A stretch of DNA of 7,937 nucleotides. Origin: a virus. Taxonomy: Duplodnaviria; Heunggongvirae; Uroviricota; Caudoviricetes. Position numbers and translations under genes: made by a program. The notes under the pieces are model-generated. The model ran no database searches, was not told the DNA's origin, and was given only the letters and a program-made list of their open reading frames with translations. The DNA lies in IMG/VR virus record IMGVR_UViG_3300001919_000129, one strand, 5' to 3'. This document shows positions 2 through 7,761 of the stretch, one piece after another (position 1 is the first letter of the stretch; every line of letters starts with the position of its first letter).

Positions 2-1300
2 ACGCTTCAGCTTATCAGGCAGAACAATGATATTGAGCGTTCAGGCGCTAACAATGTTGGGCTGACTGCTTTGCAAGGCCTTTCAGGTATTGCGGGGGTG
101 TTTCAGCAGGAAAAGCAGGCTCAGCGGCAGAAAGAATTTCAGCAGGCATACGCTAATGCTTATGCGTCTGGTGATCGCGGTGCTTTGCGTCAGTTGGCTA
201 CTCAATATCCAGACCAGATTGAATCCGTTCGTAAAGGCATGGGATTCATTGATGAAGATCAGCGTAATTCTATCGGCACCTTAGCGGCTGGCGCACGCCT
301 TGCGTCATCGTCTCCAGAAGCAATGCAATCATGGCTGCAAAACAACGCCAAGGAACTGACTCGCGTCGGTGTTGACCCCAACAGCGTTGCTCAGATGTAT
401 CAGCAGAATCCTTCAGGATTTGGTGAGTTTGTTGATCACCTTGGGATGGCTGCTCTTGGTCCGATTGATTACTTCAATGTTCAGGACAAGATGGCTGGTC
501 GTGAGATTGATCGCGGAAAACTTGCAGAGACAATCCGCAGCAATCAGGCTGGCGAGGCGCTAACAGCACGAGGCCAGAACATCACGATGCGCGGGCAGGA
601 CTTATCTGCTTCTACTGCGCGACGCGGGCAGGATTTGGCAATGCAGCGAGCGTCAACAAGAGGAACCGCTGGGAATGATGAGCGTACAGTTCAGTTATCA
701 GATGGCAGAACTGTAACGGTAGGCGGGAAGCTTCACGGCGCTGGGGCTAATGCGTTCTACGAAGGCATCGACAACGAGGGGAATATGGTTCGCGTTCCTG
801 CCAGTTCAATCGCAGCGCCTGCAACATCGTCTGCATCAGCACAAAACTATGCCATGAAGAAGGATATCGACGCGATCGCAAATGCAGACGCTTCTGCTCT
901 CGATTTCATGACAGGAATGACAGGCGGTGCAGGTAATCCAGCAATTGGTGCTGATGTTCGCAGCCGATTAACAGGAAAAGAGCAGCGCCAGTTATATAAC
1001 TCAGCACAACGTATTCAGGGCAGAATGCAGAATCAGGGTGTGGCGGCAGCAAGGGACATGGGTGCCAGTGGTATTAACACCGTTGCAGAAGCGAAGATGT
1101 ATTTTCAGGGGATGCCGCAGGTTGACTATTCAAGCCCGGAGGCTATGCAGCAGTCGATTCGTGAGATTCAGGAATACACCAACAATTACAACCAACAATA
1201 TAACGTTAATGTTGGTAAATCTCAGCGGCAGCAATCTCAACCTGCACAGGTATCACAGCCAGCAGCCAGCAGTAACTTTTCTTCACTATGGGGTGATTAA
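2..1300 (+). CDS. Virion ejection (internal) protein, P22 gp20-like by position; 5'-truncated by the window edge
   Basis: Reading frame is open from position 2 with no upstream stop, so the start at 71 in the ORF track is an internal TTG. Stop TAA at 1298-1300 overlaps the next start (TAATG). Assignment is by synteny, immediately upstream of a about 665-aa gp16-like gene and the tailspike. Protein is Q/A-rich with internal repeats. Confidence 0.6.
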
Positions 1301-3297
1301 TGGCTAAAGCATGGAAAGATGTTATCGCCTCTCCACAGTATCAGGCGTTAGCACCAGAACAAAAAGCGCAGGCTCAGGAGCAATACTTCAATGAAGTCGT
1401 TGCCCCGCAAGCCGGAGAAAATGCAGAGCAGGCTAAGCAAGCTTTCTATGCTGCCTATCCATTGCCATCTGTGCAGCCAGTGGAGACACAACAACCAGTA
1501 TCACAGCAACAACCACAGCAAAGTGGATTTATGTCGGATCTTGGTGAAGCCGTGAAAGAAACTGGTCGCGGACTGGTGCAGACTGGCGTGAACGTGGCAA
1601 ACATACCTGCATCAGTTGCCGATGCTGTAACAAGCGCGGCAGCTTGGGCTGGCGGTAAACTCGGCATTGGCGATGGTACATATCAACCAGCGCCACGAGT
1701 AACAACGCAGGGATTAGAGCAGGACTTTGGCCTTCAGCAAGGCGCGCTGACTCCACAAACTACAGAGGGCAGGGTATTTGCTGAAGCATTGCCTTACCTC
1801 ACTCCTGCTGGCGTTGAGAGAGCGGCAACACAGGCACCAACACTTGCTGGTCGAATTGCTCAGGGGGCAACTCGCCTTCTCGCTGAAAACGCAGTTGGAT
1901 CACTTGCTGCAAATAGTGCGAAAGATGATGCGGAAGCACTCGCCACCGATTTAGGCGTTGGTGTGCTGGCTGGCGGTGCTATTAACGCTGCCGGACGTGG
2001 ATTAGGTGCTGCTTATCGTGGCGTTCGTGGTTCTATTGCGCCAGAAGCGCAGCAGGCTATCAGATTTGCAGAGCGTGAAGGAGTTCCTCTGCACACCACA
2101 GACCTGTTACAACCAACTTCCCGCGTCGGAAAAATGGCGCAGACTACAGCAGAAAATATCCCTCTGGCTGGCACAAGCGGAATGAGAGCAACGCAACAGG
2201 AAGCGAGAAGCCAGTTGGTGCAGAGATTTGCTGATAAATTCGGCGAGTACGATCCGGCAGTTGTTATTGACAGCCTTAAAGCGAAAACATCAGGAATTCG
2301 TCGTGCTGCCGGTAATCGACTGGAGCAGGTTCAGAATGCTATGGCTGGAGTAAACATTCAGCCTGTGCGAGCAATTCAGCAGATTGATACTGAGATATCT
2401 AACCTGCAGAAGCTTGGTAAGGTCGCTGATAACGAGACGATTTCAAAACTTCAATCCTATCGTGATGAGCTTATTCGCAATGCTGGTCCTGATGGTCCGG
2501 TAAATCTGGATTTGAAGCAATTAAGCGATCTGCGCAGCCAGTTCAGAATGGACGTGAAGGGGGAACGACCAGTGCTACCAAACCGTTCCGATGCTGCCAT
2601 TCAGCGCGTTTACAAGGCAATGACCGACGATATCAATGGTGCCATTGGGCAGAATCTTGGCAACGATACTCTCCGTAAATATCAGCAGGCCAATGCCGTC
2701 TATGCTGACGAAGCAGCGAAACTAAAGAATACCAGGCTGAAGAATGTTCTCATGAAAGGCGATCTGACGCCGGAAGTTGTCAACAACATGCTATTCAGCA
2801 AGAACAAATCGGAAATTAAGACTCTGTATAACTCAGTTGGTCGTGTTGGCAGGGCGCAAATGCGCAATGGCATCATTGGAAAGGCGATGGAGAAATCAGG
2901 TGGTTCCCCTGACCAGTTCCTTCGACAGCTTAACATCCTGCAAAACCAGACTGGCATCACATTTAAAGGTCAGGATGCTGCTTATCTGAAAGGATTGAAA
3001 AACTACCTTCAATCCACGCAACAGGCAGCAAAAGCGGCAGTAACAACACCAACAGGGCAGCAAACCATCCCGTTCATTATCGGGTATGGGACGGCAATGA
3101 ACCCGGCGACAACTGGCGCAGCGGTAAGCTACGGACTTCTTACTCGCGCCTATGAGAGCGAGCCATTCAGAAATGCAATGCTCCGAATGGCAAACACACC
3201 ACGCGGATCGACAGCGTTTGAGAAAGCCATGCAGCAAGCGCAAAAAGCGATTAATGCACTGACGCAGGGTGCTAAGTCTGATTCGTTGTCAGAATAG
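1300..3297 (+). CDS. Virion ejection (internal) protein, P22 gp16-like by position and size (665 aa)
   Basis: Long uninterrupted ORF, ATG overlapping the upstream stop (TAATG), GGGGTG Shine-Dalgarno-like motif just upstream. Size and position match the last ejection-protein gene of P22-like phages. Has a Q/P-rich linker near the N-terminus. Not verified by search. Confidence 0.6.
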   Translation: MAKAWKDVIASPQYQALAPEQKAQAQEQYFNEVVAPQAGENAEQAKQAFYAAYPLPSVQPVETQQPVSQQQPQQSGFMSDLGEAVKETGRGLVQTGVNVANIPASVADAVTSAAAWAGGKLGIGDGTYQPAPRVTTQGLEQDFGLQQGALTPQTTEGRVFAEALPYLTPAGVERAATQAPTLAGRIAQGATRLLAENAVGSLAANSAKDDAEALATDLGVGVLAGGAINAAGRGLGAAYRGVRGSIAPEAQQAIRFAEREGVPLHTTDLLQPTSRVGKMAQTTAENIPLAGTSGMRATQQEARSQLVQRFADKFGEYDPAVVIDSLKAKTSGIRRAAGNRLEQVQNAMAGVNIQPVRAIQQIDTEISNLQKLGKVADNETISKLQSYRDELIRNAGPDGPVNLDLKQLSDLRSQFRMDVKGERPVLPNRSDAAIQRVYKAMTDDINGAIGQNLGNDTLRKYQQANAVYADEAAKLKNTRLKNVLMKGDLTPEVVNNMLFSKNKSEIKTLYNSVGRVGRAQMRNGIIGKAMEKSGGSPDQFLRQLNILQNQTGITFKGQDAAYLKGLKNYLQSTQQAAKAAVTTPTGQQTIPFIIGYGTAMNPATTGAAVSYGLLTRAYESEPFRNAMLRMANTPRGSTAFEKAMQQAQKAINALTQGAKSDSLSE

Positions 3298-3387: not shown

Positions 3388-3873
3388 TTATCTGATGTTA
3401 CTGCTACTGTTGCATGTTACCGTGTTTCCAAATCCTGAATTGCAGTTTGTATATGTGTCAACTCGTGTTGGGTAATGTTGAGTTATAACAGGCTGGCGCG
3501 CTTTTTGCTCGATCGCTTGCATTGTGTTTACAGCCTGATAATTCAATAAAGCCTGCTGGAATGCTTGGCTTTGTGCTATTTGTTGGGCTTGTTCTTGGCT
3601 TTGTAATTGAACATAAAGATTCTGAAGCTCAAGTCTTGCCTGTGCGTCACTTATCTTGCCTTCATTGACACCTTGCCCGAGCATCTTTGCAGCAAGGACA
3701 TACAGCTTAGGTGTTGGTGCTGATGCCATGCGTGAGTCGTTCTTCACACTGGCATCAAGGCAATTAGCCATATCGCTAAGCTTTTGATAGCGTTGTTCGC
3801 AACTTGCTTGATAGTCACTTACTTTTGCGCATCCAACCAGCAGAAGCGGGATAATTAACAGTGATTTTTTCAT
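3388..3873 (-). CDS. Predicted lipoprotein (161 aa), function unknown, in the sieA-equivalent slot
   Basis: Start chosen at ATG 3873 (MKKSLLIIPLLLVGC...) because AAGGAG lies about 10 nt upstream; the ORF-track start at 3909 adds 12 residues before the signal peptide and has no SD. N-terminus is a classic signal peptide ending in a lipobox LVGC, with Ala at +2 (not an inner-membrane retention residue). Mature part has a Q-rich helical-looking segment and four further Cys. Sits 70 bp downstream of mnt on the same strand. Confidence 0.7.
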   Translation of the reverse strand: MKKSLLIIPLLLVGCAKVSDYQASCEQRYQKLSDMANCLDASVKNDSRMASAPTPKLYVLAAKMLGQGVNEGKISDAQARLELQNLYVQLQSQEQAQQIAQSQAFQQALLNYQAVNTMQAIEQKARQPVITQHYPTRVDTYTNCNSGFGNTVTCNSSSNIR

Positions 3874-3943
3874 ATGGTTAACTCTCCTTAGTTTTTCACA
3901 GGATATCATGAAGGCTATGCCATTTTAGCCGGAAACTAGATTT

Positions 3944-4210
3944 CTATGTTTCCTTTTTATTATTGCTATACATGGTCTTAAGCGTTTCAAAAACCATTTT
4001 CTTAACCATATCAGATTGTTGTTCTGCCATACGCTCTGCATCGTCAATGTAAACGGATGCAGAGCTTTGTTTAGCCAACGATTCTTCAATCGCTGCAATT
4101 ATCTCTGAGTTCAGCGATCTGTTATTCATCTTCGCACGCTGCTTAATTTTCGCGTGGAGTTCATGCGGAAGTCTCAAGTGAAACTGCGCCTCGTCGTATT
4201 TACTGTACAT
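3944..4210 (-). CDS. mnt: Mnt-family ribbon-helix-helix transcriptional repressor (88 aa)
   Basis: Aligns along its full length with P22 Mnt as I recall it: N-terminal RHH strand QFHLRLP versus HFNFRMP, the RSLNSEI helix versus RSMNSEL, and C-terminal DDAERMAEQQSDMVKKMVFETLKTMY versus NDAERLADEQSELVKKMVFDTLKDLY. Start set at ATG 4210 (MYSKYDE...) to match the P22 Mnt N-terminus; an in-frame ATG at 4243 is an alternative. Confidence 0.85.
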   Translation of the reverse strand: MYSKYDEAQFHLRLPHELHAKIKQRAKMNNRSLNSEIIAAIEESLAKQSSASVYIDDAERMAEQQSDMVKKMVFETLKTMYSNNKKET

Positions 4211-4331
4211 CCTTGATGCCTCACCAGTTGGGTGGAATGGCATCGTAACCTACTGGATAAATACTCAATAGTACCATTTCGGTATGCAATCACATCATGG
4301 TTGCATCATATCATTCGTCTGGAGTAATGAA
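4211..4331. promoter_or_regulatory. Divergent control region between mnt (leftward) and tailspike (rightward); candidate operator and promoters
   Basis: AT-rich 120-bp spacer between divergent genes. Inverted repeat ATGCAA (4284-4289) / TTGCAT (4301-4306); short palindrome TACTCAATAGTA (4262-4273); TATCAT at 4309-4314; GGAG SD at 4321-4324 for the tailspike. Exact -35/-10 elements could not be fixed by eye. Confidence 0.4.
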
Positions 4332-6515
4332 ATGTCAGATATCACCGCAAATGTTGTGGTAAGCATGCCTTCGCAACTCTTCACTATGGCGCGTTCTTTT
4401 AAAGCGGTTGCCAATGGCAAAATTTATATCGGAAAAATTGACACTGACCCGGTAAATCCAGAAAACCAGATCCAGGTTTATGTGGAGAACGAAGATGGCT
4501 CTCATGTTCCTGTTTCGCAACCAATCATCATTAACGCTGCCGGATATCCGGTATATAACGGACAGATTGCCAAATTCGTTACCGTGCAAGGCCATTCTAT
4601 GGCTGTTTATGATGCATATGGTGCTCAGCAATTCTATTTCCCTAATGTGCTGAAGTATGATCCAGACCAATTTAAGAACCAATTGCTTATACTAGATGAA
4701 ACAGCACAGGATTTTAATCAGACAAAACCTTACATTATTCAAAGCGTTTCTCAGTTGCTGCAGAAAGACTTTACTGGTATTGAAAAAATAACAGTTTTCA
4801 CATACATGAACCAGCACGGAATAAAAGTGAAATCTGAATGGTATGTTGGATTAGAGAAGATAGATAATACTTATTCACTCAATCTTCCAAATGGTTATTT
4901 TGCTAATTTAATCCTTACATCTGAGATGGACTATTCAGAGTTTGGCTTTGGAAGTTCAGACCCGGAAAAAAATTCCGCAGCGATTGCCGAGGCTTGTAGA
5001 GTTGCTCGCGCAAATCAGATTATGAGCAAACTCACATTCCCGTCAGGAGTTTACTTTTCTGATAAGTTTGATTTAGATGTTGATCGCCGTGGTTTTATTT
5101 TTTCAGGAGCTGGAAATGACGCAACAATAATCATGTCAACGTCATCTAACATATCGATGCACCATGTGGGAATTGATCCTCGCGACAGGAGCAGAGATCG
5201 TCTCCACTGGCACCAAACAGTTGAAGGTTTCACCGTAAATGGAAACATTTCTAATAATGGCGCTAGTGCATCAGCAAGAGCCGTATACACAGCTCCTTAT
5301 GCTACTATTAGAAATAAATCAATTGATCACCGCATCAGTAATTATGATCTTTTACATCTGGTTATTAATTGGCATGGTCATTCGCAAGGAACAACAAATG
5401 GCTCCACCAGAACTAAGTATGGTGTTCGCGTTAGAAATAACTCTATCAAATTAATGGGTTACATTGGGAGCAGCGCTAACAATCAGTGTACTTTGTCTAT
5501 TGAAGGTATGAGCACAACCCTGACATCTACAGCATATGTAAATGACAACACTGTTACTGTTGCTGATGCTTCTGGTTTTGATACGTTGTTTGAAATTGCA
5601 TTCACCAATTCAACTGGAGGTGTAGAGACACGTCGTATCACAGCAATCTCGGGAAACGTTATAACACTTGATAGACCAATGACGTCTGAGTTCCAGTCTG
5701 GGACTAAGGTTGAAGTTCCCATTATTGGGACGTCAGTAATTTCAAGTACAATTGAAACTGGTGAGATAAGAATTGGTGACAGTCAGGCAACTTATATCGC
5801 AGGAAACTACAGCGAAGAGGCAAAGATGTATATAACAAAATACGTTAGAGCTTTGACTGTCACTGGAACATCAACAGCAGAGGCTTCACCGGCTATTACA
5901 ATTGAAGTAGACAGGCGTTCATCTATAAAAATTGAAGGAAATGACACTACGTTTTCTATCTCGGTAAACATAACAGACCGTTCTGGAAGTGTTGGTGAAC
6001 GCATTGACCTATACAATGCGCCTAAGCTGGATATTAAAATGAACACTCGTGCTCAAAATTCAATTATCTTGAATGGGGTATATGGATTCAGCAGCCTTCG
6101 TATTGAAAAGACGTTCGATTCTGTTTCTCAGGATGAAAGATTTAACCGGATGACTTTCTCTGGCTTCAATCACGTTGCACCTGCTGGAGGTTCAGTCACT
6201 GAAGTTATGAAATTTTTTCAGGATGCTACACAGTTCGGGTTTGATGGTTACACGTTTGACCTGGATATTACGTGCAGGAGGGATGGTGCTTCTGCAGCTG
6301 TTACGCCTGGCATACTGAAGCGATACGGGACATCATCAGCTGCACCAGTTGCACAAAATTCTGCTCCAGTAAGTCTTTTTTCAGACTTTAATGAGATAAA
6401 TGGCTATAATGTCTTTATTGGCGCATCTGGTAATAGAGGTACAGTGCAAGTAAGGCCAAATCCAACATCACAAATAAAATCAACTATAAATGGCACTGTT
6501 ACTTCCATAATATAG
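4332..6515 (+). CDS. Tailspike protein (727 aa): P22 gp9-type N-terminal head-binding domain fused to a divergent receptor-binding domain
   Basis: Start at ATG 4332 ([10 protein letters not shown]...) with GGAG 7 nt upstream; the ORF-track start at 4284 is an in-frame upstream ATG inside the control region. Residues 1 to about 114 (through [10 protein letters not shown]) match the P22 gp9 N-terminal domain nearly residue for residue from memory. Downstream sequence is unrelated to P22 gp9 and visibly more AT-rich. Confidence 0.9.
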
Positions 6516-6534
6516 TTTGCATAGGGAAATTGAG

Positions 6535-6583
6535 ACAAAAACGGGACACACAAAGCTTTGCACTGGATTACAAGGCTTTGTGT
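6535..6583 (-). terminator. Candidate intrinsic terminator for the integrase gene
   Basis: Read on the minus strand, a stem ACACAAAGC (6548-6556) / GCTTTGTGT (6575-6583) with an 18-nt loop is followed by GTTTTTGT (complement of 6535-6542), about 20 nt past the int stop. Confidence 0.4.
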
Positions 6584-6595
6584 CATTCGATAGCT

Positions 6596-6617
6596 AAGGT
6601 GGATCACTCCACCTTTT
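6596..6617 (+). terminator. Candidate intrinsic terminator for the tailspike gene, overlapping the int stop codon
   Basis: Perfect 8-bp stem AAGGTGGA (6596-6603) / TCCACCTT (6608-6615) with 4-nt loop TCAC, followed by TT; the U-tract is short, so strength is uncertain. The complement of the int stop (6604-6606) lies in the loop. Confidence 0.3.
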
Positions 6618-7761
6618 CATCAAGCCAGTCCGCCCACCACTGCATCATTTCTCTGCGCTTATCGAGATACTGAGCATGGTTGTAAATCCCGCGCACAGAT
6701 CCGCCGTTGGCATGTGCCAGTTGCACTTCAATAGCATCAGCAGGCCATTCGTGCTCGTTCATAATCGTGCTGAATTCATGCCTGAATCCGTGACCGCTTT
6801 CCAGCCCTTCATAGCCAATTTGTTTGATCACAAGCAATACCGCGTTCTCGCAGATTGGCTTCTTCTTATCGTTGCGCCCGGCAAAAACAAACTCTGACAC
6901 TGGTTTAGTGATTGAGCTTAGCGTAGTGAGAAGTTCAATCACCTGGTCTGACATCGGTACTACATGAATCTTGCGGCCCTTCATCACACTGGCGTCGATG
7001 GTGATAATCCTGTTTTCAAAATCGACGTTCTTCCATAGCATGGAACGAAGCTCTTTTGTTCTGAGGGCTGTGTAGCGTAAAACTTTAGTCGCAATAAGCG
7101 ATACGATACTTCCTGAAAATGTTGCCAGTGCTTTATTGAATGCTGGGATCTGGTCGGCAGGTAAAAACGGGAAGTTCTTCTTGCGGTATCCCTTCATGGC
7201 GTCAGCAAGGTCAGGTGCCGGGTTATATTTAGCCCTACCGGTGACAATAGCGTAACGGAAAACCTCGCCGCATCTTCTGCGTGCTTTGTTGGCTCGTTCC
7301 ATTGCACCGCGATCTTCAAATCTGCGGATTACTTCCAGCAGTTGCATCGGCTCAATATCCTGAATTTCAAGGCCGCCGATGATAGGTAAAATGTCGTCAT
7401 CAAACATTTTTGCAAGTTCAGTTGCATAGCCTACTGACCAGACTTGCTTCTTGTGCTCGTACCATTCCTTGTAAATCGCACTAAATGAATTGTTGTTAGA
7501 CGAAGCCTTTTTCGCCTTTACCGGATCGATGCCAACCGAGATGTCTTTCCTCGCAGTCCATGCTTTATCCCTTGCCTCCTGCAAAGTCATAAGCGGATAT
7601 TTTCCGACGGTCAGGATTTTCTCCTTACCGTCAATCTTGTAGCGAAGCTGCCATACCTTTTTCCCGGATACAGGGACATAAAGGTACAGGCCATTACCAT
7701 CGAGAAGGCGATATGGTTTTTCTTTCGGCTTTGCTGCTTCAATCTGCTTAACGGTGAGCAT
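6604..7761 (-). CDS. intS: Tyrosine recombinase, P4/IntS-type phage integrase (385 aa)
   Basis: N-terminus MLTVKQIEAAKPKEKPYRLLDGNGLYLYV is the typical arm-binding (DUF4102-like) start of P4-family integrases, and the C-terminus carries catalytic-domain hallmarks (HGFRHEF..., VQLAHANGGSVRGIYNHAQY). Start set at ATG 7761; the ORF-track start at 7797 is a GTG that would fall at or upstream of the predicted transcript start. The intS symbol is assigned by family, size and tRNA adjacency, not by search. Confidence 0.88.
   Translation of the reverse strand: MLTVKQIEAAKPKEKPYRLLDGNGLYLYVPVSGKKVWQLRYKIDGKEKILTVGKYPLMTLQEARDKAWTARKDISVGIDPVKAKKASSNNNSFSAIYKEWYEHKKQVWSVGYATELAKMFDDDILPIIGGLEIQDIEPMQLLEVIRRFEDRGAMERANKARRRCGEVFRYAIVTGRAKYNPAPDLADAMKGYRKKNFPFLPADQIPAFNKALATFSGSIVSLIATKVLRYTALRTKELRSMLWKNVDFENRIITIDASVMKGRKIHVVPMSDQVIELLTTLSSITKPVSEFVFAGRNDKKKPICENAVLLVIKQIGYEGLESGHGFRHEFSTIMNEHEWPADAIEVQLAHANGGSVRGIYNHAQYLDKRREMMQWWADWLDEKVE

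Follow-up and report, generated by a model that had tools for sequence, protein, structure and literature searches.

A P22-like tailspike gene from a human-gut metagenome contig, with a receptor-binding cassette related to those of virulent phages

The tailspikes of the P22-like phages P22, Sf6 and HK620 are trimers, present as six per virion and docked by their head-binding domains. The anchor/cassette modularity of P22-like tailspikes, and their exchange of modules with the Ackermannviridae, is well documented (in parts of the E. coli tailspike survey PMC10408124, and in the discussion of P22 and Det7 in PMC10791037). For one member of the latter family, the Agtrevirus AV101, a glycan target has been assigned by experiment, with TSP4 shown to recognise and degrade the E. 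coli O159 O-antigen: purified AV101 TSP4 produces translucent zones on O159 strains only, and it cuts the plating of AV101 on an O159 host by approximately 5 logs (PMC10791037). The AV101 authors found relatives of TSP4 in virulent phages only, with no prophage relatives (PMC10791037), and O159 is absent from the text of PMC10408124. Consequently, while the mosaic phenomenon itself is textbook, the P22-like prophage version of an O159-type cassette that we describe here is new. The gene in question, at positions 4332-6515 of the DNA analysed, belongs to a temperate phage or prophage of P22-like (Lederbergvirus) type and encodes its tailspike; we hold with very high confidence that this protein is a P22-like mosaic whose beta-helix receptor-binding cassette has been exchanged.

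Genomic setting and head-binding domain

A human-gut metagenome contig (ENA ERZ964370, run SRR1201870) contains the window (the whole stretch of DNA analysed, 7937 bases) at 100% identity; with its 38,019 bp, this contig amounts to approximately one whole P22-like genome. According to the open reading frame list, Pfam matches and gene calls, the order of genes in the window is gp20-like, gp16-like, a lipoprotein-like ORF (minus strand), Mnt-like (minus), tailspike (plus) and int (minus):

Up to 1300: 3' part of a gp20-like ejection-protein gene, which extends past the left end of the window
1300-3297: gp16-like gene
3388-3873 as called, or 3388-3909, minus strand: small lipoprotein-like ORF (161 aa, phrog_6067)
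3944-4243, minus strand: Mnt/Arc-family repressor gene, an immI remnant (PF03869 and PF11423, gene calls), upstream of and divergent from the tailspike gene
4321-4324, plus strand: ribosome-binding site GGAG, read directly from the sequence, 7 nt before ATG 4332
4332-6515, plus strand: tailspike gene (ORF list), 727 aa plus a TAG stop (6513-6515)
6604-7761, minus strand: IntS-type tyrosine integrase gene (Pfam, gene calls), convergent with the tailspike gene

As in P22-like phages generally, the tailspike gene stands at the end of the late region, with the ejection-protein genes and the immI remnant before it and int/att beside it, and the exact 727-aa protein is present on 14 public contigs, in a P22-like late region every time. 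Assemblies with the identical protein include GCA_902846545.1, GCA_053260735.1, ERR4095043, SRR31115714 and SRR17192197. In E. coli lysogens the same arrangement adjoins the tRNA-Arg gene argW and yfdC, both beyond int. There are no tRNA genes inside the window; argW lies approximately 160 nt beyond int in the lysogens, and the equivalent spot falls just past the window end.

Only 88 nt (6516-6603) separate the stop codon of the tailspike gene from that of the integrase gene, and no gtr, oac or other O-antigen-modification genes are found between them. The same position is occupied by gtrABC in P22, by an O-antigen modification protein in HK620 and by a glucosyltransferase-domain protein in the LR-28 prophage, whereas the window has none of these. 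Consequently, no serotype conversion of the lysogen is to be expected from this region. Within the spacer, two 9-bp arms (6548-6556 and 6575-6583) form an inverted repeat around an 18-nt loop.

On the other side of the tailspike gene, the lipoprotein-like ORF (MKKSLLIIPLLLVGC...) occupies the position that sieA has in P22. It matches phrog_6067, for which no function is annotated (E 5e-109), has no Pfam match and is kept in all six of six related loci; it could encode a superinfection-exclusion or other lysogen-expressed lipoprotein. Further upstream, the gp16-type ejection protein varies among loci that encode an identical tailspike protein (L003-L008, gp16 homologues at approximately 6427-9054): it has 665, 797 or 875 aa, and an SLT lytic-transglycosylase domain is present in some and missing in others, so that mosaicism in the ejection-protein genes is independent of the tailspike gene. 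Similarity of the window to several of these loci is lost between approximately 450 and 1590. The gp20-like ORF listed as starting from TTG 71 is a truncation artefact, its homologue in a related locus (L007) starting 88 nt before the window.

Within the tailspike gene we distinguish the following parts, where "body" refers to residues 115-727:

4332-4673, plus strand: head-binding (virion-attachment) domain, aa 1-114 (PF09008, PDB matches, and identities to P22, HK620 and LR-28)
4669-4672, plus strand: recombination junction, codons 113-114 (...DPDQF), holding the last bases similar to other P22-like tailspike genes
4674-4727, plus strand: linker, aa 115-132, present only in P22-like carriers of the cassette (alignment), with pLDDT 34-52 for body residues 1-20
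4728-4949, plus strand: predicted small N-terminal beta domain of the cassette, aa ~133-206, with strands at body residues 20-86 (domain ~20-90) and pLDDT >85
4962-5012, plus strand: predicted capping alpha-helix, aa 211-227, body residues 97-113 (AlphaFold model, DSSP)
5028-6113, plus strand: predicted right-handed parallel beta-helix, aa ~233-594, body residues ~119-480, presumed to be the O-antigen binding/cleaving part
5772-6021, plus strand: internal exchange patch, gene nt 1441-1690 (segment-wise identities)
6141-6512, plus strand: predicted C-terminal beta-sandwich, aa 604-727, with model strands at body residues 490-612

Although the open reading frame extends upstream to an in-frame ATG at 4284, every relative begins with MSDITANV, which corresponds to ATG 4332, and this is also the called start in six public contigs. 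The start codon is thus ATG 4332 and not 4284, and the gene is intact to its stop at 6513-6515. Residues 1-113 match Pfam PF09008 (Head_binding) over profile positions 1-113 of 113 (E 2e-67), and in the PDB the domain matches Sf6 gp14 (7sg7, E 9e-66), as well as P22 gp9 (1lkt/2xc1) and CUS-3-type spikes. A first-pass annotation made from the DNA sequence placed the end of this domain accurately, at residue 114 (nt 4673), while its description of an almost exact match to the N-terminal domain of P22 gp9 was an overstatement: identity to gp9 is 75% at the amino acid level (86/114) and 71% at the nucleotide level, and the domain is closer to Sf6 gp14, HK620 and E. coli prophage alleles (90-97% nt) than to P22, with identities of 93-97% nt to HK620 and LR-28.

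Relatives of the body and its probable glycan target

The body comprises 613 aa, in line with the approximately 610 aa originally proposed. On its own it has no match among Pfam, NCBIfam and PHROG families or among PDB sequences, and a profile of the cassette family retrieves from the PDB sequences only the PF18668-type N-terminal anchors of other carriers, never the body. The full-length protein has phrog_8280 ("tail spike protein with colanic acid degradation activity") as its best PHROG match, but this label stems from the shared head-binding domain only, since no PHROG is hit by the body by itself, and we therefore set it aside as uninformative.

Relatives of the body are found instead among the receptor-binding proteins of unrelated virulent phages. 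Amino acid identity is 77.9% to the C-terminal module of AV101 TSP4 (WJJ54146.1) over body residues 36-613 (94%), 78% to a spike of the Kuttervirus LPST94 and 73% to those of the phapecoctaviruses Ro121c4YLVW and P3322; for the T7-like Kayfunavirus ST31, whose matching protein is the tail fibre, it is 69%. These alignments cover 94-98% of the body. More distant matches, at 36-42% identity, come from proteins of other E. coli phages and of a Vibrio phage. In a search of a large protein collection, the cassette (42-78% aa identity) was found behind at least five N-terminal anchor types:

Anchor type 1: PF09008, in P22-like prophages (cassette identity 86-99%)
Anchor type 2: PF18668, in Ackermannviridae and Phapecoctavirus-type spikes
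Anchor type 3: PF18668 with PF03906 (T7 tail-fibre N-terminus), in T7-like fibres
Anchor type 4: an 843-aa Citrobacter type, without a Pfam domain
Anchor type 5: a PF03160-containing type

The core common to all anchor classes starts, by alignment, at aa ~132-133. This combination of one cassette with many anchors, and of kin in unrelated virulent phages, bears out the initial suggestion that the body is a horizontally exchanged receptor-binding module. With AV101 TSP4 the window shares the receptor-binding module (78% aa) and DNA patches of 94-96% identity at gene nt 973-1115 and 1354-1440; however, TSP4 is a protein of 1092 aa, in which an N-terminal region (approximately 430 residues) serves to build the branched spike complex of the Ackermannviridae, whereas the window has the 114-residue P22 head-binding domain. 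LPST94, Ro121c4YLVW/P3322 and ST31 likewise possess the same cassette (69-78% aa, GC 0.40-0.42, GC3 ~0.30-0.32), but behind PF18668 or PF18668 with PF03906 anchors and in phages of virulent lifestyle. The reverse is true of the tailspikes of P22, Sf6 and HK620, which share the head-binding domain, the same genome position and a beta-helix body, yet whose bodies have no detectable sequence similarity to that of the window and only 8-10% identity in structural alignments.

Full-length matches to the gene occur in three complete E. coli genomes: those of isolate 44 and of a sibling obtained from the same source (NZ_CM194531, NZ_CM194529; 95.7% nt), and that of EC17CM7 (96.5% nt). Between isolate 44 and the window, 63 of the 94 mismatches are concentrated within gene nt ~1441-1690. 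In this patch (5772-6021) the window allele is 92% identical to LPST94 and 75% to AV101, while for isolate 44 the identities are 91% with AV101 and 90% with ST31; EC17CM7 resembles the window here, both having 91-92% identity to LPST94. Elsewhere, EC17CM7 is 97-100% identical to the window in the body but only 88-93% in the anchor, and a further patch, at gene nt 1890-2075 (window 6221-6406), is divergent in EC17CM7 alone. At gene nt 973-1115 (window 5304-5446), each of the three prophage alleles has 96% identity to AV101. From such tract-wise allele differences it follows that the cassettes of temperate and virulent phages still exchange short tracts, of approximately 90-250 nt. Amino acid differences between the alleles are few (17-19) and mostly conservative.

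As to what the body recognises, three independent links point to O159. The first is the activity of AV101 TSP4 described above. The second is the genotype of isolate 44 and its sibling, in which PGAP annotates O159-family wzx/wzy, and whose O-antigen clusters contain GDP-fucose pathway genes, with an NAD-dependent epimerase gene nearby, beyond gnd and ugd. The third is that the O159 cluster, found in 17/5426 E. coli genomes, is present (99.6% identity) in strain ST130, which shares its name with the stated host of phage ST31, this genome and host being connected by strain name only. Carriers of the tailspike gene make up 2/17 of the O159-genotype complete genomes against 1/5409 of the others (Fisher p=3e-5, or p=0.006 when isolate 44 and its sibling are counted once). 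On this evidence, which comes from relatives of the tailspike and from their hosts, the window itself being from a metagenome contig, we consider the E. coli O159 O-polysaccharide to be the probable substrate of this tailspike, bearing in mind that 78% identity to AV101 TSP4, the sole tested homologue, does not guarantee the same specificity.

The main alternative, to which we give a clearly smaller though appreciable chance, is that a tailspike of the same kind here acts upon another glycan, such as the rare rhamnose-containing O-antigen of EC17CM7, a related O-antigen, capsule or colanic acid. Counting against O159, the EC17CM7 lysogen is not O159, and has instead a different, rare rmlBDAC-containing O-antigen cluster (its wzx/wzy occur in 2/5426 genomes, neither record with a serotype name); in addition, one related cassette comes from a phage isolated on an O121 STEC (Ro121c4YLVW) and another from a Salmonella phage (LPST94). 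The modest identity to TSP4, the exchange patches by which the alleles differ (gene nt 1441-1690, and 1890-2075 in EC17CM7) and the colanic acid label of phrog_8280 could also be read in this way. However, that label is due to the head-binding domain alone, the allele differences are mostly conservative, and the three links to O159 are independent of one another. Moreover, O-antigen clusters are themselves exchanged, so a lysogen may switch serotype after gaining a prophage. O159 O-polysaccharide thus remains our favoured target.

Several further observations concern these host genomes and the published record. The prophage of isolate 44 is a remnant, in which a gp16 fragment follows almost immediately on a small-terminase gene (locus L018, NZ_CM194531.1, 926-1704); its head and tail genes have therefore been deleted, while the tailspike, Mnt-like and int genes are intact. 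The frameshifted O159 wzy of isolate 44 was considered as a phage-escape mutation and rejected, as the same 1015-nt "frameshifted" annotation is found in ST130; it is therefore generic to O159 annotation rather than specific to the lysogen, and represents either a general property of the O159 cluster or an artefact of the annotation model (locus L015, 29170-30184; locus L017, 501-1515). In EC17CM7, wzzB, the O-antigen chain-length regulator gene, is interrupted by IS26 (locus L014, 20228-22033), which would alter the distribution of O-antigen chain lengths. Finally, the discussion of PMC10791037 remarks that LPST94 TSP1, a relative of AV101 TSP4, "may recognize O8", whereas the results of the same paper assign TSP4 to O159; the O8 remark looks like an internal slip.

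Predicted structure and mode of action

An AlphaFold2 monomer model of residues 115-727, built with 40 homologues (mean pLDDT 88, pTM 0.83), predicts that the body folds as a right-handed parallel beta-helix, as in P22-like tailspikes, followed by a C-terminal beta-sandwich. Both elements had been guessed from the length of the body, as a beta-helix depolymerase with a C-terminal domain, and both appear in the model. The small beta domain modelled between linker and helix, of approximately 70 residues, is an addition relative to the tailspikes of P22, Sf6 and HK620. Within the beta-helix, polar residues invariant among the 40 homologues are (full-length numbering) R253, D263, H292, Q295, K329, H333, N337, D339, N370, E475, E495 and D559.

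The model was compared with solved beta-helix depolymerases (Klebsiella K2-2 TSP, 8iq9; CBA120 TSP2, 5w6p/6w4q; Pantoea WceF, 6tgf) and with further beta-helix enzymes (AlgE4 and the alginate epimerase/lyase structures 2pyg/8ja4, and GH28 polygalacturonases). Identity to all of these is 8-15% and TM-scores are 0.3-0.4, and no family or catalytic motif is transferable from them; nor could catalytic residues or an enzyme family be assigned to the body from Pfam, PHROG, NCBIfam or PDB sequences. The predicted fold would fit hydrolysis and beta-elimination alike.

We propose that residues 1-114 would dock the spikes, as trimers, to the virion's tail hub, and that these residues are followed by an 18-residue linker and then by a cassette of 595 residues, predicted to consist of the small beta domain, capping helix, beta-helix and C-terminal beta-sandwich. 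The beta-helix would bind the host O-antigen and probably cleave it, allowing the particle to reach the outer membrane, whereupon the needle and the ejection proteins encoded upstream (gp20-like and gp16-like) would open the envelope. In this scheme, trimer formation is presumed by analogy with the characterised P22-like tailspikes, and we infer both catalysis beyond binding, through hydrolase or lyase chemistry and with indirect support from the translucent zones and plating inhibition seen with AV101 TSP4, and the O159 specificity of this particular allele.

It is also conceivable, if improbable and less likely than a change of glycan target, that the body binds O-antigen without depolymerising it, either as a binding-only spike or as an esterase that removes O-acetyl groups. 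The failure to assign catalytic residues or an enzyme family would be in keeping with such a role, and deacetylating tailspikes of similar overall shape are known; one deacetylating spike is the subject of PMC6989608.

The junction, base composition and exchange of the cassette

The boundary between anchor and body is sharp at the level of homology. Local DNA alignments of the gene end at window positions 4669 (LR-28), 4671 (P22) and 4672 (HK620), so that within a few bases an identity of 93-97% to other P22-like genes gives way to sequence that no longer aligns, and BLASTP against P22 gp9 aligned residues 1-114 only, with no alignment at E < 0.5 after residue 114. The junction near 4675 postulated in the first-pass annotation, and the body's lack of relation to P22 gp9, were therefore both well founded. 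Similarly, 1112/5426 complete E. coli genomes match the start of the gene, with matches that end at gene nt 329-354, and only three match it over its full length. A junction after a ...DPDQ(F/Y) motif is shared with the tailspikes of P22, Sf6 and HK620, and the cassette was in all probability acquired by recombination just past the conserved ...YDPDQF motif.

Base composition provides a less distinct picture, and the AT-rich body and compositional break at 4675 that had been proposed hold only in part. GC falls to 0.326 (p ~0.011 versus either neighbour) in a local AT-rich trough at 4674-4931, which overlaps the region of the small beta domain and contains the AT runs that had been singled out, and GC3 drops from 0.412 in the head-binding part to 0.312 in the body (p=0.039). 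However, the difference in bulk GC (0.430 versus 0.398) is not significant (Fisher p=0.28), and a likelihood change-point scan within the gene finds no significant break and none near 4675, its best position being 6370, with a score reached by 314/500 shuffles. Consequently, composition alone could not have located the junction. The largest compositional step of the window lies at approximately 3273, where the gp16-like gene, and with it the GC-richer stretch of ejection-protein genes (0.51), comes to an end. AT-richness is thus a weak argument for transfer, and it is the homology break that carries the case.

The composition of the cassette is nevertheless similar across its carriers, with GC of 0.40-0.42 and GC3 of 0.30-0.32 in the window, AV101, Ro121c4YLVW and LPST94, versus GC of 0.44-0.46 and GC3 of 0.38-0.42 in the spike bodies of HK620, LR-28 and P22. 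That the gene diverged in place, with neither the junction nor the low GC a sign of transfer and the dip a product of amino-acid content, is hardly credible: although the bulk GC difference and the change-point scan are in its favour, it must contend with the loss of alignable sequence within a few bases, with a body 69-78% identical to genes of unrelated virulent phages, and with a cassette composition that recurs in each carrier and is set apart from the P22, HK620 and LR-28 bodies in GC3.

As a mosaic of a P22-like anchor and an exchanged receptor-binding cassette, this tailspike changes no current view. It adds one more clean case of anchor/cassette modularity, in which the junction can be placed to within a few bases and the cassette itself contains small exchange patches, and it extends the O159-type cassette, so far described in virulent phages only, to temperate P22-like prophages. 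E. coli O159 includes enterotoxigenic and Shiga-toxin-producing strains, and at 727 aa the tailspike is a small and easily expressed candidate reagent for recognition of the O159 antigen.
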